Positions 9,033 through 20,688 of a DNA stretch of 31,196 bases are shown in pieces. A model generated the notes under the pieces. That model searched no databases and was not told the DNA's origin. It worked only from the letters and a program-made list of their open reading frames with translations. Numbering within the stretch: the stretch's first letter is position 1; the number at the start of each line of letters is the position of its first letter. A program made the position numbers and the translations under genes. This DNA is from a virus (Duplodnaviria > Caudoviricetes), in IMG/VR virus record IMGVR_UViG_3300034101_000207, positions 1 through 31,196 of that record, one strand, 5' to 3'.

Positions 9033-11789
9033 ATGAACCGTAATCCTTCTATGGCAGGTCTCGCCTCCCTCGTGCAATCACGGGGTCGGAACGGCGACTC
9101 CGTACTTGTCCACATGGCTCCCGAAGAAGTGCATGGCTTGCAAAGTCTTGCCTTGGCTCACGGTGGCAGCCTGACGATTAACCCAGATACGGGCTTGGTT
9201 GAAGCTAACTTCCTCAAGAAGCTCCTGCCGACCATTATCGGTGCAATCCTGACTCCGCTTTCCGGTGGCCTTATTAACCCGTTCACGGCGGGTCTTCTGG
9301 TCGGCGGCGTGGAAGGACTCCGTACGGGCGACCTTGGTAAAGGTCTCATGGCTGGCCTTGGTGCGTTTGGCGGTGCGGGGCTTAGCAGTGCTTTGGCGGG
9401 TGCTGGTTCGGCTGTTGCTTCAGGTGCTGGCGAAGCGATTAAAACGGCAGGCACAGAAGCTGCTTCTGCCGCTCTTAAAGAAGGTGCAAATCAGGCTGCT
9501 CAAGAAGCTGCTAAACAGACGGCTATGAAGGAACTTGCGGCCAAGAAGATTGCTGAACAGACGGCAACTAAGAGTCTCTTCGGTCGGCTCCCAGAGGGCG
9601 TTGCCAGCCTGAAGAACATCAGCACTGGCGCACAGGAGATCTTTAAGACTGGCGGTGCAGGTCTTGGCGGTATCGGCGGTATGAACACTGCCGGTGCGGC
9701 GTTTAATGCGTTGCCGGGGGGCATGATTGGTAAGGCTGGTTTAGTTACTAGCGCCGCCAACGCCCTGACTCCTGAAATGGAGGTGCCAGAAGGCGCATAT
9801 AACATCGACGATTCGTACTACGAATCTATGGGGTACAGCCCTGAGCAGGGTCGGTTCCTCGGTGGGCAGTGGCGCAAGGGATATCCCGGCTTCCCCGGCT
9901 ATGCGATGGGTGGCGCGGTCATGCCGCGCACGAACTACGACTACCCGCAGGCAGGTATCACTAAATCAAATTACGCGCCAAGTCTTGAGTATACCAAGCC
10001 GCAGGAGATTCTTGACGGCTACGACACCAAGATTGACCCGTTCACGGGTGCAGAGCGTTTTGCTGAAGGCGGTCAAGCACAATCTAATTTGAATCAAGCA
10101 ACGTTGGAAGAAGGCGGCCGTTTGGCGGAAAAGCAGCAGAAGGAGTTTACGGACACGCTTTCTATCCTGACGATGAACCCCGGCATGTCATTTGCAAAGG
10201 CGGCTGAGTTCACTGGCTACAAAGGCGCTGCCCAGCCAGAGCACGCCGGTTATCAAGCCCGTCGTGACACGAGTGCCAACTTCAACTGGGGTGCGGACCT
10301 TCCGTACGACCCAAATATCTACGCCAATCAGTTTAAGTGGCAGGAATACATTGCCGCGAATCCGGACTTAGCAGCGGCAGGTATTGACACGCCGTGGGAA
10401 GCGGCAACGCATTATTCGAACTACGGCAAAAACGAGAATCGCCCCGGTGTAGGCTTCTTGAATTCTGGTGTTCAAGTTCTTCCCGGTGGGCAGGTTGTTT
10501 ATCCGCAGCCGGTTGATGAACCGAGTCCTGAAGATATAGAGGCTCGTTTAGCCGCGTATCGAGAACGTGAAGCCAATCAGCCTCAGGTCGCCGCTCCCGC
10601 TGCACCGACCCCGACTCCTGCTGCACCAACTACGACGCCTGCACCGACAGGTATCGCCTCTACGTTGCCAAGGACTCCGTTTGTGCAGAATGTGAGTACG
10701 ACCACCACGGCTCCGACTTCGTACATGCCATATGCTCCTGCCGCGTCGTCTTACTATCAAACGCCTTCGTCGTACTTCACTGCGCCGCAACCGCCGACTC
10801 CGGATCAGTTCCCGAGTCTTGAGGATTACTACAAAACGTTGATGACTGCTCCGCAGCAACAGACGCCAAGTTCGTCGTTTGCGGATTACATGCAGAGCCT
10901 CAACAAGTTTGTAACTTCACCGGTTGCACCGCTTACGGTGCCGCAAACTGCTGTTGCTCCTCCGCCTAACACTACGGTCACGGGTGGTGGTACTGGCACG
11001 ACTGGTACTGGATCGGGCACAGGGTTGCCCGGTGGACTCGGCGGGATGCAGTGGAACCCGGCTCAAGGCCGCTTCGTGAATACTCCGGGCAGCATGGGTG
11101 ACACTTACAACAACCTCGCTGAGCTTCAAAACTTAGTTAATTCCGGAATGTTTTCCGGCTTTAACTTTGGCGACCTAGGTAACTACTTAGGTACAGGTGG
11201 TAGCGATACTTCGGGCATGGTTTGGAATCCGTCAACTGGATCGTTCATGCAGCCGGGTACCCAACTGGATGTAAACGCTGCGCCGTACAACATGCAGACT
11301 CAAATTGCTGCTAATACTTATACGCAGCCAACTTTTGGTATACCCACCACGACGCCAACGATTCCGTATAACAACCCGTATCAAAACTCAATGAGCACGG
11401 GTGACTACGCTACTGCCGTAACTTCTCCGTATATCACTGAACCTGAAATTGATTACGGCAGTGATATGTTTGGCTTAGGCCAAGATGCCAACATCTTTGG
11501 CTTCTCTGGCGGTGGAAGCACTGAGTACGCTGCGGCAGGCAAACTGCTTCGTGGCCCCGGTGATGGCATGTCTGATGACATCCGTGCCAACATCGACGGT
11601 AAACAAGAAGCCCGTCTGGCCGATGGTGAGTTCGTTGTTCCTGCCGACGTAGTGTCGCATCTCGGCAATGGCTCGTCTGAGGCTGGTTCACGCAAGCTTT
11701 ACGCCATGATGGACAAGATCCGTAAGGATCGAACTGGGCGTAAAGAGCAGGCACCTGAAGTAAAGGCTGAGAAGTATTTGCCAGCATGA
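9033..11789 (+). CDS. Internal virion/ejection protein (multi-module, Pro/Thr/Gly-rich)
   Basis: N-terminal GRNGDSVLVHM.PEE...TINPDTGL.E; hydrophobic Gly/Ala segment; C-terminal GPGDGMSDDI...ARLADGEFVVPADVV domain of the type seen in tape-measure/ejection proteins. Confidence 0.65.
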   Translation: MNRNPSMAGLASLVQSRGRNGDSVLVHMAPEEVHGLQSLALAHGGSLTINPDTGLVEANFLKKLLPTIIGAILTPLSGGLINPFTAGLLVGGVEGLRTGDLGKGLMAGLGAFGGAGLSSALAGAGSAVASGAGEAIKTAGTEAASAALKEGANQAAQEAAKQTAMKELAAKKIAEQTATKSLFGRLPEGVASLKNISTGAQEIFKTGGAGLGGIGGMNTAGAAFNALPGGMIGKAGLVTSAANALTPEMEVPEGAYNIDDSYYESMGYSPEQGRFLGGQWRKGYPGFPGYAMGGAVMPRTNYDYPQAGITKSNYAPSLEYTKPQEILDGYDTKIDPFTGAERFAEGGQAQSNLNQATLEEGGRLAEKQQKEFTDTLSILTMNPGMSFAKAAEFTGYKGAAQPEHAGYQARRDTSANFNWGADLPYDPNIYANQFKWQEYIAANPDLAAAGIDTPWEAATHYSNYGKNENRPGVGFLNSGVQVLPGGQVVYPQPVDEPSPEDIEARLAAYREREANQPQVAAPAAPTPTPAAPTTTPAPTGIASTLPRTPFVQNVSTTTTAPTSYMPYAPAASSYYQTPSSYFTAPQPPTPDQFPSLEDYYKTLMTAPQQQTPSSSFADYMQSLNKFVTSPVAPLTVPQTAVAPPPNTTVTGGGTGTTGTGSGTGLPGGLGGMQWNPAQGRFVNTPGSMGDTYNNLAELQNLVNSGMFSGFNFGDLGNYLGTGGSDTSGMVWNPSTGSFMQPGTQLDVNAAPYNMQTQIAANTYTQPTFGIPTTTPTIPYNNPYQNSMSTGDYATAVTSPYITEPEIDYGSDMFGLGQDANIFGFSGGGSTEYAAAGKLLRGPGDGMSDDIRANIDGKQEARLADGEFVVPADVVSHLGNGSSEAGSRKLYAMMDKIRKDRTGRKEQAPEVKAEKYLPA

Positions 11790-12229
11790 ATCTTGATTTC
11801 ACATTAGTCAAGTACGGTCAGGTCAGTTATGTGATACCTGCTCTGATTAAGTATTTACAGAAGTCTGAATTTTGGAGCGGAGGGCGGGCAACCGTCGATG
11901 ACATAGTTAGATTTGTAATGAACGGACAGATGCAGTTATGGGCTGTGTTTAATCCGCAAGATGATCAGATTTATGGATTTGTTATAACGGAAATTAAACC
12001 GTACCCGCAGAAGACGATGTTAGTAGTTCAATATTGTGCTGGTGAAAGCAACTATATGCAGTACGGTGAAGACGTTATTTTCTCAATCCTTGACAAGTTT
12101 GCTGTAGATGCAGGCTGTAAAGGGATTGAATTTTTCGGTCGTCCCGGTTGGGAACCGCATGTAAAAAAACGTGGATACACCAGAAAAACTGTGGTGTATG
12201 AAAAACATTTTGATGAGGTACAGCCATGA
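11786..12229 (+). CDS. GNAT-fold protein in the ejection cluster (P22 gp14 / T7 gp13-like position)
   Basis: 147 aa with GQMQLW...GFVITEI..YP...L.V..CAG...FA...GC..IE..GRPGW...K..GY; sits between ejection proteins. Confidence 0.6.
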   Translation: MNLDFTLVKYGQVSYVIPALIKYLQKSEFWSGGRATVDDIVRFVMNGQMQLWAVFNPQDDQIYGFVITEIKPYPQKTMLVVQYCAGESNYMQYGEDVIFSILDKFAVDAGCKGIEFFGRPGWEPHVKKRGYTRKTVVYEKHFDEVQP

Positions 12230-13590
12230 GTAGCGGCGGCGGCGGTTCATCTCAACCGAGTCAACAAACAGTCACTCAGGTAACTATCCCACCTGAGTTA
12301 ATGCCCTATGCCAAGAAAGCTCTTGGTACGGCAGAACAGCTTGCTTATAACCAGCCCTACCAAACTTTTGGTGGGCAACGCATCGCGGGACTTAACCCGC
12401 TTCAGATGCAGGCTATGGGCCAGATCCAACAGCAACAGACTACGCCGCAGACTCAACAGGCTACCGGGTTTGCTGGTCTTGCTGGTTTGCAGGCTCAACA
12501 GTTGGGCGGCTACGGTCCCGCTACGTTTACTGGGATGGACGTTACCAACGTCACTGCCCAAGCTCCTGAACTGCGCGACATCGTGATGGAGAATCCGCAG
12601 CAGGTTGCTGCACCGGGAGATCTTGAACGTCTGCAAGCAGGCCCTGCCCAACAGGTGCAGGCAGAGAGATTCGGTCTTGCCAGCATGCAGCCCTACATGT
12701 CGCCGTACATGCAGGACGTTGTTGAGTTTCAGAAAGAACAGGCCATCAGGGATTACGCCAGACAGATACCGGGCTTGCAGGCAGCAGGCGTCCGATCCGG
12801 TGCGCGTGGCGGCACCCGTGAAGCGTTGCTTCAGTCCGAGGCTCGCCGCAATCTCCAAGAAGGACTGCGTGGTATCCAAGCGTCAGGTACTCAGCAAGCG
12901 TTCCAACAGGGGATGCAGCAGTACAACATGGACCAAGCGCAGCGCATGCAGGCTGCTCTGGCTAACCAAGCGGCTGGACTCACGGTCGGTCAACAGAACT
13001 TGGCTGCGGCTCAGGCTCGTCAGCAACTCATGGCTCAACAGGCTATGCAGGCTCAGTTGGCTAATCAGGCCGCAGGACTCACTAGCGGTCAGGCCAATCT
13101 TCAGGCGCGACTCCAGACTCAAGGTCTTGGCGCTCAACAGTCCATGCAGGCTCAGTTGGCTAACCAACAGGCTCAACTTCAGGCTCAGCAGCAGGCTCTG
13201 GCTCAGCGTCAGTTCGGCGCTCAGTTTGGCGAGCAGTCTCGTCAGTTCGGTGCCAACCTTGGTTTACAAGGCGTACAACAGCAGTTGGCTGCGGCAGGCA
13301 TGCTCGGCAGTCTGGGTCAACAGCAGTTCGCTCAGCAGCAGGGTATCAACCAAGCTCAGATGGCGGCTGGCGCTCAGATGCAGCAGCTTGAGCAGGCTCG
13401 GTTGCAGGCAGCATACGAAGACTTCCTCAACCGTCAGCGTTATCCGTACCAGCAGCTTGGCTTTATGTCAGACTTGATTCGCGGTACGCCCACGGCTGGC
13501 GGCATTCAGACTATCTACGGATCGCAGTCTAGCCCCCTTGGCGCGTTAGCAGGACTTGGCGGCCTCTATATGGCTGGTCAGTCTCGGTAA
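12226..13590 (+). CDS. Gln/Ala-rich DNA-ejection (pilot/transfer) protein
   Basis: MSSGGGGSS start; YQTFGGQRIAGLNPLQ; YMSPYMQDV; long Q-rich coiled coil; YP.QQL.F; hydrophobic Gly-rich C-terminus. Confidence 0.65.
   Translation: MSSGGGGSSQPSQQTVTQVTIPPELMPYAKKALGTAEQLAYNQPYQTFGGQRIAGLNPLQMQAMGQIQQQQTTPQTQQATGFAGLAGLQAQQLGGYGPATFTGMDVTNVTAQAPELRDIVMENPQQVAAPGDLERLQAGPAQQVQAERFGLASMQPYMSPYMQDVVEFQKEQAIRDYARQIPGLQAAGVRSGARGGTREALLQSEARRNLQEGLRGIQASGTQQAFQQGMQQYNMDQAQRMQAALANQAAGLTVGQQNLAAAQARQQLMAQQAMQAQLANQAAGLTSGQANLQARLQTQGLGAQQSMQAQLANQQAQLQAQQQALAQRQFGAQFGEQSRQFGANLGLQGVQQQLAAAGMLGSLGQQQFAQQQGINQAQMAAGAQMQQLEQARLQAAYEDFLNRQRYPYQQLGFMSDLIRGTPTAGGIQTIYGSQSSPLGALAGLGGLYMAGQSR
12946..13170 (+). 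repeat. 99-bp (33-aa) tandem repeat, MQA[AQ]LANQ units x3
   Basis: ATGCAGGCT...GCTAA starts at 12946, 13045 and 13144; atgcaggctcagttggctaa is exact at 13045 and 13144. Confidence 0.85.
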
Positions 13591-13604: not shown

Positions 13605-15164
13605 ATGGCAAGTAACATGATGTATGGCATATCGGCACTCGACCCTCGGGTTGCTGCTACCGACAAGTTCATTCAAGACAAGCAGATTCCGCCTGATCAG
13701 GTAGAAGACTTTCTGCTGTCGATGGGTGCCGACCCCAAGTTGGCTAGTCTGGTATTTAAATATCGGAAGGTGCAAGAGGCTGCTAAAAATCAACAGCAAG
13801 CTGCGCCCTCGACTACCAACGTCGATCAAGATATTTCTAATCAATACGCTCAGCTAAAGCAACAGCAACGTGGCATTGCTGCGATGTCTGCTCCTGCGAT
13901 TGCTAATGCCCCGATGCGCGGTGGTATTACTGGTCAGCCTGTGCAGCAGATGGCTGGCGGCGGTCCGGTTGCGTTTGGTAAAGGCGGTAGAACTTACACC
14001 GTCGATCCTGAAGGCAACGTAGATACCGGTGAAGGTAGGGACATCATTCCTTACGAGGCTCCTGCCGAACCGCCGCAAAAGAAACGCGGCATATTCCGGT
14101 CAATCATGCAGAACCCGATTCTTCGTCGCGCTGGCTACGCGGGTCTTGGCTTGGCTGGACTTAGTGCTTTGTTTGGTGAGGACGACAAGAAAGAGCCTAC
14201 GGCGGGTGCCACAGTAGAGATGGCTCCGGAAGGTTTGTCTGATGAGGCCATTAAACTTCTTGCTGCCGCAGACGCAGAACGCCCCGCTGCCGGTGCAGGC
14301 TCTCAGGCAACTGCGTTACCTGCTGCGCCAAGATTTAAACGACCGGACACATCTGAAATTAAAACTGCTATTGCTGAAGCCGAGGCGCGTGTACCCAAGA
14401 GTGAGCAAGAAGCTATTGATGCCGAGATGAAAATGCTCAAGGAGGCTGGAGCGTTTGAAGGTATTGAAGCCCGTCGCAAACAACTTGCTGAGCAGAAAGA
14501 AAAAGCCACTACGTCACCCGAGAAAAAGTTCTGGTTGGCGTTTGCTCAGGCTGGTTTTGCTGCGTCTGCTAAGGGTGCCCGTAACCTTTGGGAAACCTTG
14601 TCCATGGGTGGTGTCGAGGGCATGAAAGTCTATGAAGGCATGAAAGAGAAAGAGAAGGAAACGCTTGAAAGAATCGCTGACAGGCAGTTCCAACTTGATG
14701 AGATGCTTTCTAACAAGAAACTGACTGCTACTCAGGCTGGTAGAAAGAAACTTGATGATGCTCGTAGAGAACTGCAAACGCTGAGACTACAGAGTGCTGC
14801 TCAAGAAGCGTCTATAACTAATGCTGAAAATATGTTTGGCGCACAGATCTATGGCACTCAGGCTCAGATCACGGCGGCTGACCGTCGTTTCGCCGCATCG
14901 CAAGCTGGTAAAGCGCAACTACAAAAACTTGAAAATCAGTACTACGCTGATATTGCTGCGGCACAACGTACAACTGATCCTAAATTGAAAGCAGCTTACT
15001 TAGCGCGAGCAGAAGATACGTTTAGAGCTAAAGCACGAATTGAACAAGCGGAGTCTGGTTATCAGTCTGCGGCGGCAAGAATCCAAGACAGGGCTAATAT
15101 GATCACTAGGCAGGGTGCTTATGCACCTGATGATGCGTATAGTGGTATGGAACAAGTAGAGTAA
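13605..15164 (+). CDS. Putative ejection/internal virion protein, coiled-coil
   Basis: 519 aa, helical and Ala/Gln/Lys/Glu-rich, with MAGGGPVAFGKGG and one hydrophobic segment (AGYAGLGLAGLSALFG); lies between the pilot and giant proteins. Confidence 0.6.
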   Translation: MASNMMYGISALDPRVAATDKFIQDKQIPPDQVEDFLLSMGADPKLASLVFKYRKVQEAAKNQQQAAPSTTNVDQDISNQYAQLKQQQRGIAAMSAPAIANAPMRGGITGQPVQQMAGGGPVAFGKGGRTYTVDPEGNVDTGEGRDIIPYEAPAEPPQKKRGIFRSIMQNPILRRAGYAGLGLAGLSALFGEDDKKEPTAGATVEMAPEGLSDEAIKLLAAADAERPAAGAGSQATALPAAPRFKRPDTSEIKTAIAEAEARVPKSEQEAIDAEMKMLKEAGAFEGIEARRKQLAEQKEKATTSPEKKFWLAFAQAGFAASAKGARNLWETLSMGGVEGMKVYEGMKEKEKETLERIADRQFQLDEMLSNKKLTATQAGRKKLDDARRELQTLRLQSAAQEASITNAENMFGAQIYGTQAQITAADRRFAASQAGKAQLQKLENQYYADIAAAQRTTDPKLKAAYLARAEDTFRAKARIEQAESGYQSAAARIQDRANMITRQGAYAPDDAYSGMEQVE

Positions 15165-15168
15165 GCCT

Positions 15169-18100
15169 ATGCCTCGCTACGTAGTGACGATGCCGGATGG
15201 TAGAAAATTTGCCATCAACGGCCCTGCTGGTGCATCTCAAGCAGAAGTCATTGCTGCCGTACAACGTCGTCTAGGTGCAGACAAGAAAGAAGAAACCACT
15301 CTCGGCGGTGAACTAAAAGAAGCGGTTAAAGGCGTCATCCCCGGTGCGGCTGGACTTCTTGAAACGGCAGCTACCGGTGCCGCCGCGTTGCTTCCTGAAG
15401 AACAGGAAATGGCTGTACGAGCCAAGGCCGCAGAGATGGCTGGTGCCGCCCGTGAAACGTTTGCTGCTGCACCCGGTTATGAAGATTCTGTCGGTCGCAA
15501 GTTTGGTGAAGCCCTTGGTTCGACCGTACCGTTCTTTGCTCTAGGTCCTCTTGGTGTAGCCGGTCGTGTTGCCGCCACTGGACTTGGTGTTGGAGCAGGT
15601 GCAGGTGAGGCTCGGCAGCGTGCTGAGACTGAAGGCGGCGAAGAAGATAAAGGTCTTGCCACTGCGGCAGGTGCCGTCGTCGGTGCCAGCGAAGCCATAC
15701 CGGTATTCAACTTCGTCAAACGTTTGCCTCGTGGCGCACAGTTAGATATTGCTGATCGTGTTCGCCGTGCATTTCAGGCCGGTGGTGAAGAAGGCGCACA
15801 GGAAGCTGCTGCACAGATCGCTCAGAATTTAATTGCCCGAGGTTTGTATAAGCCTGATCAGGCGTTGATTGAAAGCGTTGGTGAAGAAGGTGCATACGGC
15901 GCGGGTGTCGGTGCATTCATCCAAGTCCTGACCGACATGGCGCTGGGTCGTCGTGCCAAAACTGCCCCGCCTCCTGAGCCACCCACCGCACAAGAAAAGT
16001 TGGCTGAGCCTGAGACACCGCCCACTGCACCGGCTGGAACGCAGGCAGCGGCAGCGGAAGATGTAGCAAAACAGGTCGATACGCAATCCACTGTTAGACA
16101 AGCTCTTGACGAAGAGATTAGCGCAGAGGAAGAAGCCCGTCTTGAACGCGAGGCTATCCAAGCCTATGAGCGCGAGCAGGAAGAACTCGCTGCTACCAGA
16201 CGCCGTCAGTACGACGAGAGAACTCTGCGCGAAGCAGCGGAGGCTGAAGCACTTGCTCCGGTAGACGAAGATATTCCGTACATGCGGCCCATGAGTGAGG
16301 AGGCTCGTGCTGCCCTAGATATGAATCTGGGTGAGCGCCTCATGGGGGATGAGATAGAAACTCCGTCTATGAGTGAGGAGGCTCGTGCTGCCCTAGATAT
16401 GAATCTGGGTGAGCGCCTCATGGGAGACGAAGTAGAAACCGTAGAACCAGAATACACGATGCGGGACGCTGCTCTTGAAGTGTTCCGCGAGACTGGTAGA
16501 ACTAACGTAGATACGTTGCGTGATCGGCTGGCTATTCCGTTGCAGGAAGCCAAGCAACTGCGTCAGTCATTTATTGATGAAGGATTACTTGTAAGGCGTG
16601 GCAACACCTACATATTGCAGGAACCGACCAAAGAGGCTCCGCCTGCCAAGGCAGAGGAGGTGGAAGATGCAGCAGTACGCGCCAGAGATATTGAAACAGT
16701 TGACACTGGAGCAGTTGGAAGAGGCGATGTATTGCCTCCATCACGACCAGTATCCGAGGGACCTGTTGTTACAGAGCCTGCAACTACCGCAGTGGAACGA
16801 GTTGGCGAATTTGCTCCAGATGTTGTTGAAGGAACGGCAGCAGCAGACGTTGCACTAACTGCGGGTAAACCCGCGCTTCCTGAGAGGAAAGTAAAGAAGG
16901 CGGCGGAGGCAATTACTGCTCAACGCATACAGCCGGGTTTGCCTCTTGAAGATACTCGTGAAGCAGAACCAGAAAAGGCTGCCCCTGCCAAACTTCTCAG
17001 TAGGCGAGCTATCTTCGATGAAGCAAAAAAATTATACGCGGCTGGTCAAGTAAGCCCGCGTACATACCGTGCTGTTCTGGAAGAAATAACCAACGCGCCG
17101 TTTGGTGAGTTAAAACAGCGTGACCTAATAAAGCTACGCGATAAATTACGTGCGTCTCAGCAGCGTATCCAAGCAAGTCAGGCGGCTCCTGTAGAGCAGG
17201 AGAAAGTAGAAGCTCCGGTTTCTACCGATGATGAACTTGCTGCGTTTTATAAGCGCAGGCAGGAAGAAGATACACGGCAACGTGTACGCCGCGAACGTCG
17301 TGATATTGGCATGCGTTTACAGCGTGGCCCCGGTATCGGTATGGATGCAGGTCGCGTCCAACAGATCGCTGACAAGGCTGCTGCCAACTGGAAGAACAAG
17401 CCTCGCATCATCGCCGTTCAGTCAATCGATGAAGTGCCTGAGTCAATCCGTGACAAGGTTCCGGATGATGCACGTGGCTTCTATATTGCTGGCGACGTAT
17501 GGATTATTGGTGATAACGCCACGACTGAAGCGGGCGTCCGTGCCACTCTATTCCATGAGTCGCTTGGTCACTACGGCTTGCGTAGCATGTTTGGGCGACG
17601 TCTCCGCGAGGTAATGCTCGATATATACCGTACTAATCCCGCCATGCGTAAGGCAGCGGATAAGTGGTTGGGCGATGCTCAGAACGCCACTACGTACGAC
17701 TACATGGACCGTGACGGCCAGACTGCTATGGCTGTTGAAGAAGTTCTTGCTGAAGCGTCGTCGCAGGGTGAGATCAAGAACGCCGGTATTCGTGCTGCCT
17801 TCAATCGTGTTGCTGCCCTTATCCGCAGGTTCCTGCGTGCTATGATAGGTGGGTTTAGAGGCGGCGAACTTGCTTATAGTAACAACGATGTCCGTCAGGT
17901 TCTGATTGAAGCACACAGCACGGTTATTACTCGTGAGCGTGAAGCTCGACTTGGTGACGGCACGATTGCCTTCCAACGGAAAAAGGCTGAAGCCCGACTC
18001 AGTAGCGTATTTAATGTCAATCTGACTGCACCAAAGTACAACGAAAAGATTGGCGATGGCGTACGTGGTGCGCTTGGGAATGTTTATGACTCGCTGCGCG

Positions 18101-20688
18101 AAGGCGCAATAGGCTTCCTAGGCATAGATCAGATTGCAGAGGTATGGGCTGAAGAACTTCCTGCTGTTGAGAAACTAGACAAGATTCTTAGCGCACGTGG
18201 CTCTACCGAAATGACCCGGCGCGAGTACGTTAGCAAGAACGTGACTGACTGGTTTGAATTGTCCAACAAGCATTCGCCTGAAACGCTTGATAAATTTTTC
18301 CGCGTAGCCAACATGACTACGATCTATCAGGTTGATCCGTTGGATAGTTCGGTACAGGCAGTATTGAAGAAGCCAGTTACTGCTATGACGCCGTTTGACA
18401 AGGTCTCGTATGACATTGTCAAAGAGTACAACAGCATGCCTGTCGATCTTCGCAAAGCCTATAAGGACATGCGTGAAGATTACGATAAGTCGGCCAAAGA
18501 GTTCGAGAAGCTGCTTGAGCAGCGGCTCGGTAAAGACGTACTCGATAGAATCAAAAACAAGTACGACAAGAAGAAACTTCAGGTCTATTTGCCTTTGTGG
18601 CGTGACGGTAAGTACTGGCTAACTTACACCGACAAGAACAATGAGACCATCACTTCTGCCTACGCCACTGACGTAGAGAGGCAACGAGCGAAAGAAGCCG
18701 TGTTGGCTGCTGGTGGCAGAGATATTCAAGACTTTAAGCGTCTGCGGGATGCGCGTGAAGGTGCGCCGCCGACCGGATTCTTGGGCGAGATCGTCAAGGA
18801 ACTTGACAGTAAAGGTGTGCCGCCTGATGCCATCGACGCCGTGTACGAGGCGTATCTAAACTACTTACCTGCTGAGTCTATTCGTCAAATGCGTCGTCCC
18901 CGTGAAGCGTCATTTGATTTGACCACGGGCGTGGATCGCTACGGTGTATTCGGCTTTGAGCCTGACATCTTCCAGTCCTACGCGAACGTTGCGCCGCGCA
19001 TCGCTAACCAGTTGACCAATCTGGAGTACGCCATCCCCATCGAAGAAACGATGAGGGAGATCAAGAGACAGGTTGGTGGCGACAGACCGCGCAATCCGAC
19101 GTTGGCTGCGGTGTATAACAATCTGGAGAAGCAGGTCAACTTCATCCGTAACCCCGAGAAGAATTGGCTCGTGGACGGTGCCAGCTACTTCAGCTATCTG
19201 TGGTTCATTGCGGGTAATATTTCTTCTGCACTGATCAACTTGACTCAGATTCCCATGGTGGTCGCGCCGCTACTTGGCGGTAAATACTCTATTGCGAAGG
19301 CTACTGCCGCGCTGGATAGAGCTTCGGCTACTTACTTCAACGGTGGATGGGATACTAACAACGGTGGCAGAGGCGCGTTCCCGTCTGACTTTACGTTCGG
19401 CGCTGCCCAGAATCTGCCGCCCCGTTACAAGAGACTGTACAACCGTGCGGTAGCCCAGTCGATCATTCGCCGTTCAACCGGCTACGAAATCACTGAAGCA
19501 CAGCGGTCTGGTGTTAAAGACTTCGTGGGAATACGAGCACGAGTCGAGCATGGTCTTGGCTGGATCTTCCAGAACTCGGAACGTTTCAACCGTGAAATTA
19601 CGTTGCTCGCCGCGTTTGATCTCGCCTACGAAGAAACCAAAGATGTAGACAAGGCGATTGATGAAGCCTTGAAGTTGGTGAAGGCAGCGCACGGTTCTGC
19701 TCTTGCCGAGACTGGTCCGCGTCTGTTCCAGCAGGGTTTTGGTAAGGTGATGTTCACCTTCAAACGCTTTGCTCAGGCCCAGATCTACTTGCTGTCTAAG
19801 TTGTTTAAGCAATCCTTTGGCGATGCTGATCAACGCACCCGCGAGATTGCACGTAGTCAGTTGATTGGTATCTTCGGATCGTCGTTCTTGATTGCAGGTA
19901 TTCAAGGCATGCCGATGTACGGCGCGGTCGAGATGCTGGCTAACCTGCTGCTTGGTGACGATGACGAGCCATACGACTTTGAAGCCTACATCAACAAGAA
20001 GTTTGGCGACATGGGGCAGAAGGGTCTGCTCAACAAGATGATTCAGGTAGACGTTGCTTCGCGTACCGGCTTCAACAGTTTGATCTGGAAGGACGATCCG
20101 CAACGCATGGCTGAAGTTGGTCCGTTCTTGTACACCTTGGAGCAGGCAATGGGTCCTGCCTACGGCGCGTTCTTGAGCGGTCAGCGTGGGTATGATCTAT
20201 TTAAAGAAGGTGAGTACCGACGTTCCATCGAGGCAATCACACCGTCGTTTATCCGTAACGGGTTCAAAGCAATTCGTATGGCCGAGGAAGGCGTGCGTAA
20301 CAAAGACGGCACACCTGTTATTGAAGACATAAGCCGTTACAACTTGATGATGCAGTTGGTCGGCTTTACTCCTGCCAAGGTAGCCGAAGCTCGTGAGAGC
20401 GCGGGTGTAGATAGAAAGATAAGTGACAAGCTTTATGCACGTAGAGATAAACTGCTTAATCAGTATTTCTCTGCTTGGCAAGAGAATGATCAAAAAGAAA
20501 TGCAAGAACTACTCGGTAAAATGTATGAGTTCAGCATAAAAAATCAGAAGCCCGGCTTGTTTATTGATGCCGAGACGATACAGAAATCCATTTCAGGCAA
20601 GTTGGAACGGCAGGCACAGTCAGTAAACGGTATGTACTTACCGATGCCGGTACGCACCAGAGTAGAAGAAATACGAGAGGGTGGTTAA
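15169..20688 (+). CDS. Giant internal virion/ejection polyvalent protein: Gly/Ala hydrophobic region, wHTH, zincin-like metallopeptidase, PLxRFG-like C-terminal region
   Basis: 1839 aa. TLFHESLGHYGLR (His at 17554 and 17569) plus a downstream EEVLA; YLPLWRDGKY at 18586-18615 resembles YxPLxRFGxY; last gene of the late module. Confidence 0.75.
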   Translation: MPRYVVTMPDGRKFAINGPAGASQAEVIAAVQRRLGADKKEETTLGGELKEAVKGVIPGAAGLLETAATGAAALLPEEQEMAVRAKAAEMAGAARETFAAAPGYEDSVGRKFGEALGSTVPFFALGPLGVAGRVAATGLGVGAGAGEARQRAETEGGEEDKGLATAAGAVVGASEAIPVFNFVKRLPRGAQLDIADRVRRAFQAGGEEGAQEAAAQIAQNLIARGLYKPDQALIESVGEEGAYGAGVGAFIQVLTDMALGRRAKTAPPPEPPTAQEKLAEPETPPTAPAGTQAAAAEDVAKQVDTQSTVRQALDEEISAEEEARLEREAIQAYEREQEELAATRRRQYDERTLREAAEAEALAPVDEDIPYMRPMSEEARAALDMNLGERLMGDEIETPSMSEEARAALDMNLGERLMGDEVETVEPEYTMRDAALEVFRETGRTNVDTLRDRLAIPLQEAKQLRQSFIDEGLLVRRGNTYILQEPTKEAPPAKAEEVEDAAVRARDIETVDTGAVGRGDVLPPSRPVSEGPVVTEPATTAVERVGEFAPDVVEGTAAADVALTAGKPALPERKVKKAAEAITAQRIQPGLPLEDTREAEPEKAAPAKLLSRRAIFDEAKKLYAAGQVSPRTYRAVLEEITNAPFGELKQRDLIKLRDKLRASQQRIQASQAAPVEQEKVEAPVSTDDELAAFYKRRQEEDTRQRVRRERRDIGMRLQRGPGIGMDAGRVQQIADKAAANWKNKPRIIAVQSIDEVPESIRDKVPDDARGFYIAGDVWIIGDNATTEAGVRATLFHESLGHYGLRSMFGRRLREVMLDIYRTNPAMRKAADKWLGDAQNATTYDYMDRDGQTAMAVEEVLAEASSQGEIKNAGIRAAFNRVAALIRRFLRAMIGGFRGGELAYSNNDVRQVLIEAHSTVITREREARLGDGTIAFQRKKAEARLSSVFNVNLTAPKYNEKIGDGVRGALGNVYDSLREGAIGFLGIDQIAEVWAEELPAVEKLDKILSARGSTEMTRREYVSKNVTDWFELSNKHSPETLDKFFRVANMTTIYQVDPLDSSVQAVLKKPVTAMTPFDKVSYDIVKEYNSMPVDLRKAYKDMREDYDKSAKEFEKLLEQRLGKDVLDRIKNKYDKKKLQVYLPLWRDGKYWLTYTDKNNETITSAYATDVERQRAKEAVLAAGGRDIQDFKRLRDAREGAPPTGFLGEIVKELDSKGVPPDAIDAVYEAYLNYLPAESIRQMRRPREASFDLTTGVDRYGVFGFEPDIFQSYANVAPRIANQLTNLEYAIPIEETMREIKRQVGGDRPRNPTLAAVYNNLEKQVNFIRNPEKNWLVDGASYFSYLWFIAGNISSALINLTQIPMVVAPLLGGKYSIAKATAALDRASATYFNGGWDTNNGGRGAFPSDFTFGAAQNLPPRYKRLYNRAVAQSIIRRSTGYEITEAQRSGVKDFVGIRARVEHGLGWIFQNSERFNREITLLAAFDLAYEETKDVDKAIDEALKLVKAAHGSALAETGPRLFQQGFGKVMFTFKRFAQAQIYLLSKLFKQSFGDADQRTREIARSQLIGIFGSSFLIAGIQGMPMYGAVEMLANLLLGDDDEPYDFEAYINKKFGDMGQKGLLNKMIQVDVASRTGFNSLIWKDDPQRMAEVGPFLYTLEQAMGPAYGAFLSGQRGYDLFKEGEYRRSIEAITPSFIRNGFKAIRMAEEGVRNKDGTPVIEDISRYNLMMQLVGFTPAKVAEARESAGVDRKISDKLYARRDKLLNQYFSAWQENDQKEMQELLGKMYEFSIKNQKPGLFIDAETIQKSISGKLERQAQSVNGMYLPMPVRTRVEEIREGG
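16291..16440 (+). repeat. 78-bp tandem duplication (MSEEARAALDMNLGERLMGDE x2)
   Basis: 56 bp identical at 16291-16346 and 16369-16424, followed by a few mostly synonymous differences. Confidence 0.95.
16667..16858 (+). CDS. Nested out-of-frame small protein (63 aa) inside the giant virion gene
   Basis: AGGAGGT at 16655-16661, 5 nt before ATG 16667. Product MQQYAPEILKQLTLEQLEEAMYCLHHDQYPRDLLLQSLQLPQWNELANLLQMLLKERQQQTLH is amphipathic-helical; the host frame here is a low-complexity linker. Confidence 0.6.
   Translation: MQQYAPEILKQLTLEQLEEAMYCLHHDQYPRDLLLQSLQLPQWNELANLLQMLLKERQQQTLH

Follow-up and report, generated by a model that had tools for sequence, protein, structure and literature searches.

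A small frame nested in a giant late gene

The window, which is the whole stretch of 31,196 nucleotides analysed here, is a 31-kb virus record with an estimated completeness of 49%, and a lake water metagenome label is attached to 24 of the 24 listed runs containing the record. Genes for the tail, lysis and ejection are found on its plus strand, the last of them an open reading frame (ORF) of 1839 codons. The nearest cultured phages, judged by one structural protein, reach an identity of only 29-35%, and the best results of a host search were peptidase matches of 31-32% in two betaproteobacterial MAGs.

The last ORF (15169..20688, plus strand) encodes a giant polyvalent protein of 1839 amino acids, which closes the ejection-protein cluster and whose role is suggested by this position and by family matches. 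Several parts of it could be delimited on the plus strand, including a segment tentatively labelled wHTH-like (16456..16608; no Pfam match), a zincin-like peptidase domain (17332..17931) whose HESLGH motif at 17554-17571 is of the HEXXXH form described in PMC5512222, an LPD39 domain (18070..18537; Pfam PF18858, E 1.1e-8) and a C-terminal region (18556..20634; phrog_10089, E 1.7e-73) common to the PHROG 'DarB-like antirestriction' giants. With the MPTase motif HESLGH and LPD39 in one giant phage ORF, the window's giant qualifies as a polyvalent protein. In the same cluster, an upstream gene (12226..13590, plus strand) was assigned to DNA ejection proteins (phrog_4287, E 1.9e-11), and two further ORFs (9033-11789, 918 residues; 13605-15164, 519 residues) gave no match in Pfam or PHROGs. 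A +1 ORF of 290 codons inside the ejection gene (12605-13477, plus strand) was discarded as the shadow of a Gln-rich coding sequence, because its identity to the relative L002 was 43%, compared with 71% in the main frame. The linker of the giant contains a 78-bp tandem duplication (16291-16445) that is present as a single copy in the relative L009; contigs from two runs break at 16369, within the duplicated region, and no indel was listed for the contigs aligned to the window.

Just downstream of the wHTH-like segment, a complete small gene (16667..16858, plus strand) lies in a linker of the giant, runs from ATG to TAA in the +1 frame over giant codons 500-563, and encodes 63 amino acids ending in QTLH, predicted to form an acidic helical bundle. 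Its Shine-Dalgarno (SD) site, AGGAGGTG (16655..16662, plus strand), reads Glu-Glu-Val in the giant frame; the core AGGAGGT at 16655-16661, from which the match extends, lies 5 nt upstream of the nested ATG, which is drawn from Asp-Ala codons of the giant. The initial annotation had pointed out both this ORF and the AGGAGGT before it, and both are present. Its further statement that the site is stronger than the ribosome-binding sites of the late genes also holds, with an anti-SD pairing of -16.7 kcal/mol versus a best value of -8.7 kcal/mol among the 26 main-gene starts scored. An in-frame GTG further upstream (16598) is not conserved, as the relatives L015-L019 carry a stop 12 codons above the nested ATG.

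From a single sequence, the ORF and its SD could be due to chance (P 0.2-0.5 over the window's genes). When only the giant gene was shuffled, 2.7% of 300 shuffles contained an out-of-frame ORF that reached 63 codons and was preceded by 7 or more SD bases; when all 27 ORFs were shuffled (100 shuffles), an equal ORF and SD were obtained in 50% of synonymous and 22% of codon-order shuffles. What one sequence leaves to chance is settled by homologues, which show that the nested ORF is a real gene.

Selection on the nested frame

Selection was assessed on 48 distinct DNA variants, whose last 55 codons align without gaps. Over the same bases, the mean identity was 53% for the +1 peptide and 31% for the giant peptide, and the former exceeded the latter in 1123 of 1128 pairs. 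The least variable base was the second codon position of the +1 frame, which is the wobble position of the giant (0.28 vs 0.45 and 0.47), a pattern of protein selection. In 11 disjoint pairs, the fourfold-degenerate sites of the giant differed at 19 of 341 positions (6%) inside the overlap and at 2234 of 5420 (41%) outside it, where the comparison was restricted to stretches of at least 60% identity; a drop with P <0.05 was seen in 15 of 17 single pairs. A scan along the giant in 46 segments revealed a sole dip, at codons 481-560 (0.12 and 0.11; next lowest value, 0.25), which is missing from one of the five relatives scanned (L004), probably because of misalignment. Since the variants and loci are related and redundant, the P values overstate independence; the direction is uniform.

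The start signals are maintained as well. SD pairing of -7 kcal/mol or below was found in 40 of the 48 variants, compared with 8.9% of 9136 control windows, and the site is preserved by means of different giant-frame codons across variants. Starts were ATG in 29 variants and GTG in 19 (the start with the best SD was picked within the 57-72 range), giving products of 59-69 residues with the SD mostly 4-9 nt upstream, and all three stop codons are used. These results agree with the conservation check proposed in the initial annotation, in that frame, SD and stop are kept in relatives and synonymous change in the main frame is suppressed.

Two explanations that dispense with a separate protein can be weighed against these data. 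One is that the ORF arose by chance or marks a non-coding DNA or RNA element, for which the frequency of equal ORFs in the window-wide shuffles speaks, together with the probability of about 0.125 that 55 codons of the +1 frame stay open by chance. It is refuted by the comparative data, being contradicted by the codon-position pattern, by the composition of the nested frame, which is richer in Glu (11.7% vs 1.5%) and poorer in Arg (3.7% vs 11.7%) than the +1 shadow that flanks it, and by conservation between subfamilies, where the last 26 codons share 39% identity in the nested frame and 22% in the giant frame; the probability left to it is negligible. The other is that ribosomes enter the frame from the giant by +1 frameshifting, so that it forms the end of a truncated giant. 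Frameshifting can be stimulated by SD-like sites, and the +1 frame is open for 3 to 168 codons upstream of the start; nevertheless, an ATG or GTG start at the expected SD distance in all 48 variants and the lack of any shared slippery run visible by eye make this extremely unlikely. Thus, the nested ORF is, on comparative sequence evidence, almost certainly a real conserved protein-coding gene. Codon adaptation within the overlap was 0.65 for the nested and 0.60 for the giant frame (nested higher in 79 of 129 cases), and this codon use, slightly nearer the norm of the host gene, suggests, if only weakly, that the nested frame is the older of the two.

A nested family in mosaic giants

The 63-residue protein itself has no match in Pfam, PHROGs or NCBIfam. 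A 20-sequence profile recovered 114 representatives at 50% clustering, of which 3 long ones were removed, leaving 111 small proteins. When 127 members were compared with the libraries, only single-member hits appeared, to seven Pfam families and one NCBIfam family, and PHROGs gave none. The best match in the ESM Atlas (0.75) was an unnamed viral cluster, which is a lead only, and a tree of 107 members was mostly unresolved. In the titles and abstract openings of mostly open-access papers, no description of this nested family was found. The family is thus unnamed and comprises more than 100 clusters at 50% identity, while embedded phage genes as such are already known. The expectation in the initial annotation that gene callers would miss the gene was mostly borne out, as no PHROG family covers it, with the reservation that 14 database proteins exist (10 of them solely on contigs shorter than 2.6 kb).

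In every locus examined, the gene lies +1 relative to a giant open frame: this holds for 69 of 69 distinct variants (146 loci), for a distant subfamily (80 of 80 loci, 63 distinct) and for the loci recovered with a third query (33 of 33, 28 distinct, some overlapping with the other sets). The host matched the window's giant by BLAST in 68 of the 80 distant-subfamily loci and 21 of the 33 third-query loci. No free-standing copy was found in these 259 redundant loci, which were retrieved by short-pattern scans covering part of the family. In two loci (L301, 975-1181; L304, 6001-6207), the start with the best SD gives 51 residues that correspond to the second half only and end in TLH.

The gene is not required by every such giant, because it is absent from 3 of 20 close relatives and from all five negative genomes described below. 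Loci retrieved by the giant's own frame had the nested ORF in 12 of 12 cases (a redundant set that counts L001, identical to the window across the nested gene), and those retrieved by the peptidase domain had it in 17 of 30, namely 17 of 20 at identities of at least 39% and 0 of 10 at 32% or less, one of the latter loci being incomplete. In the negative set, all of the five near-complete genomes were devoid of the gene throughout. The giants of L083/L084 and L090 have the HESLGH peptidase without the nested gene and represent natural knockouts; in the two of these genomes searched, the gene was not found elsewhere. Cultured phages gave no tblastn match to two family members, the family profile had no match in three GenBank phage records or in two genomes with distant giants, and a pattern scan of GTDB yielded 103 candidates, none of which was confirmed. 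Other out-of-frame ORFs with SD-like sites were noticed in distant giants (L095, 5143-5352, 70 codons; L100, 1171-1473, 101 codons; L099, 7358-9478, 707 codons).

A domain census of 70 complete distinct giants carrying the nested gene, in which remote homology may have been missed, revealed a mosaic architecture: segments of the window's type were found for the N-terminus in 20 hosts, the wHTH-like segment in 20, the peptidase in 29, LPD39 in 51 and the C-terminal region in 57. Of 71 close pairs, 44 diverge within the 90 bases that follow the nested stop, and 16 do so on its upstream side, implying that the end of the gene marks a module joint. In some comparisons (L002 vs L011; L039-L042 and L071), the giant frame turns unrelated straight after 16858, where a recombination joint is likely.

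This mosaicism bears on the suggestion in the initial annotation that the product acts on the neighbouring HESLGH metallopeptidase as a chaperone or an inhibitor. A downstream HExxH-type motif is present in 63 of the 70 complete hosts, and such peptidases have been proposed to process polyvalent proteins (PMC5512222). On the other hand, 7 hosts have no HExxH-type motif, the window's own peptidase type occurs in a minority, differing types alternate below the same nested family, L049 and L051 leave a gap of only about 100 residues between the nested stop and LPD39, and L083 and L090 have the window's peptidase without the nested gene. As the nested gene is steadier than any tested part of the giant, the peptidase idea is weakened and has become very unlikely, and a direct chaperone role is weakened less strongly.

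In such a role, the product would bind and escort the giant, or else an ejection protein encoded nearby, and aid head loading in the manner of P1 Ulx, with the tail setting turnover only. The constant relative nesting place (300-870 residues into complete giants), the many conserved leucines of the nested protein, an SD that outdoes the giant's and the wide sharing of the giant's C-terminal region are all consistent with this possibility, as is the report that Ulx aids the localisation of DarB (PMC9024508). Against it, none of the five tested giant segments occurs in all 70 hosts, remote homology aside, and giants of the same layout exist without the nested gene. The escort reading is possible, though less likely than not.

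A host-takeover or superinfection-exclusion factor, for which a tolerant linker in a late transcript serves merely as coding space, would fit both the lineages that do without the gene and its independence of the giant's domains. Nevertheless, a hydrophobic membrane segment is absent from the family alignments, and the confinement of the family to giant genes in all 259 loci suggests a functional tie, so that such a factor appears rather unlikely.

AlphaFold2 models (mean pLDDT 79 and 83.5) comprise helices at residues 7-11, 14-26, 33-36 and 40-60 followed by a low-confidence tail of three residues, so the product is predicted to fold into a small bundle of helices, acidic overall, from which the tail projects freely. 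Of 120 variants, 99% have no net charge or a negative one (median -4), which argues against DNA binding. Fold searches of PDB and BFVD gave no match at E 0.001 and returned generic small bundles only, and the best VIA-align scores against HTH, MarR and homeodomain-like bundles were Z 5.1 (rmsd 3.2, 62 aligned) and 5.0 (rmsd 3.1, 60 aligned). The NblA family (Pfam PF04485) was touched by 1 of 127 members (E 0.004), below the cut-off, and was not found in the window record. Mimicry of the oligomerisation helix of H-NS, disturbing host silencing, was suggested by a weak match to the N-terminal domain of VicH (E 0.15) and by a profile score of 16.2 against 11 gammaproteobacterial H-NS N-termini, which exceeded 60 of 60 column shuffles, a lenient control since such shuffles destroy helical periodicity. 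The profile match had a probability of 4.8% over 22 columns and covered one helix with a common cap motif; 18 Burkholderiales-order H-NS N-termini gave no match, no internal repeat was detected in the nested protein, no significant profile match extended over the oligomerisation helices, and no member matches the Pfam model. Such mimicry is highly improbable.

The C-terminal tail, Lon and comparison with known systems

The Thr-Leu-His tail and stop (16847..16858, plus strand) form a candidate Lon-type degron, as judged from tail counts across the family and from PMC11986505. A terminal His is found in 65 of the 67 variants in the near group and in 93 of the 111 representatives of the whole family, in contrast to 0 of the 27 main ORFs of the window; it follows Leu, Val or Ile in 92 of the 111 representatives. 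In a set of 130 variants, the penultimate residue is Leu, Ile or Val in 129 (Met in one) and the 21st residue from the end is Trp in all. Gln replaces the terminal His in 51 of 63 distant-subfamily variants (His in 12) and in 13 of 28 third-query variants. A final His goes with Leu, and a final Gln with Val/Ile, in the giant frame; the tail residue may thus be dictated in part by the overlap.

The published Lon C-terminal degron is x-L/I-L/I/V-H, with two hydrophobic residues before the terminal His, and any substitution of this His reduces recognition by Lon (PMC11986505). The third-last residue here is mostly Ser, Asn, Pro or Thr (Thr in the window), which departs from the published L/I; tested degrons ending in TLH, TVH and SLH depart from it likewise, and Lon-trapped substrates ending in VTLH and FTVH and a validated DLSLH end were reported in the same work (PMC11986505). 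Judged by its residues, the tail of the nested protein resembles the published degron. In Caulobacter, LarA, a Lon substrate and regulator in which a helix is followed by a short His-ended tail, binds Lon by this tail and activates it (PMC10665427).

The nested SD is stronger than the best start of the giant in 112 of 120 loci. The His tail, the precedents of LarA and of the phage proteins CIII, PinA and gp4.5, and the strong nested SD favour the interpretation that the product is a short-lived late helper acting as both substrate and decoy of Lon. The nested protein would be made late and, given its strong SD, in excess over the giant; its Leu-His tail would engage host Lon; and in this way it would probably shield the ejection proteins until they are packed into the head. 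Ejection proteins must remain loosely folded for packing and expulsion. The nested gene persists when domains of the giant are exchanged, an indication that its partner is not one of those domains. Several considerations count against a decoy: a degron would indicate turnover rather than inhibition, and LarA, by analogy, activates Lon; the Gln-ending subfamily, the polar third-last residue and the link of the final His or Gln to the giant-frame codon fit it poorly; the gene is missing from some close phages; and the weak SD of the giant may reflect translational coupling, which speaks against the excess. The whole substrate-and-decoy mechanism is therefore put forward tentatively, as the favoured reading but one well short of an even prospect, with the escort and host-facing readings not far behind it. 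A broader proposal is that phages possess an old and large family of Lon modulators confined to a passenger frame within giant ejection genes, the small gene being the fixed element, the giant's 'linker' its read-through and the end of the gene a joint for swapping effector modules; this is speculative and, taken as a whole, rather improbable.

Among known systems, the His-ended Lon degrons (PMC11986505) and LarA (PMC10665427) share with the nested protein a short free tail that follows a helix and ends in a hydrophobic residue plus His, and differ in that the third-last residue here is mostly polar, one subfamily ends in Gln and no sequence family match exists. Lambda CIII is helical and is both a substrate and an inhibitor of a host ATP-dependent protease (PMC1838920), and T4 PinA and T7 gp4.5 are small phage proteins acting on host ATP-dependent proteases, so that phage proteins targeting Lon do exist (PMC10286901). 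The analogy with these proteins is one of working, as no similarity to the nested family was detected, and the available text of these sources does not describe them as nested genes. The giant, with its HEXXXH peptidase, LPD39 and DarB-like PHROG match, is like the polyvalent proteins of PMC5512222, in the main text of which the word 'overlap' is absent. P1 Ulx and DarB provide a precedent for a small helper beside a giant head protein, although Ulx is a 17-kDa protein with its own ORF number (PMC9024508). Cyanophage NblA is comparable in that it is small, helical and protease-linked and its frame overlaps another one, but this overlap is partial, up to 110 nt (PMC12695635).

The nested family is found only inside another gene and is the most constant part of the mosaic region there, which changes how the linkers of polyvalent phage proteins are to be read. 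It may offer a clean natural system for lasting gene overlap and a simple test of whether phages manage host proteolysis while ejection proteins are being built.

A parallel in layout is lambda Rz1, an embedded phage gene that occupies the +1 frame of the longer late gene Rz and has a start codon of its own. The gene described here shares this arrangement, being likewise complete and small. Unlike in Rz1/Rz, the host gene encodes a polyvalent ejection-type protein of roughly 2000 residues, the alignments of the nested product contain no signal peptide or lipobox, and the conserved frame is the nested one rather than that of the host gene.
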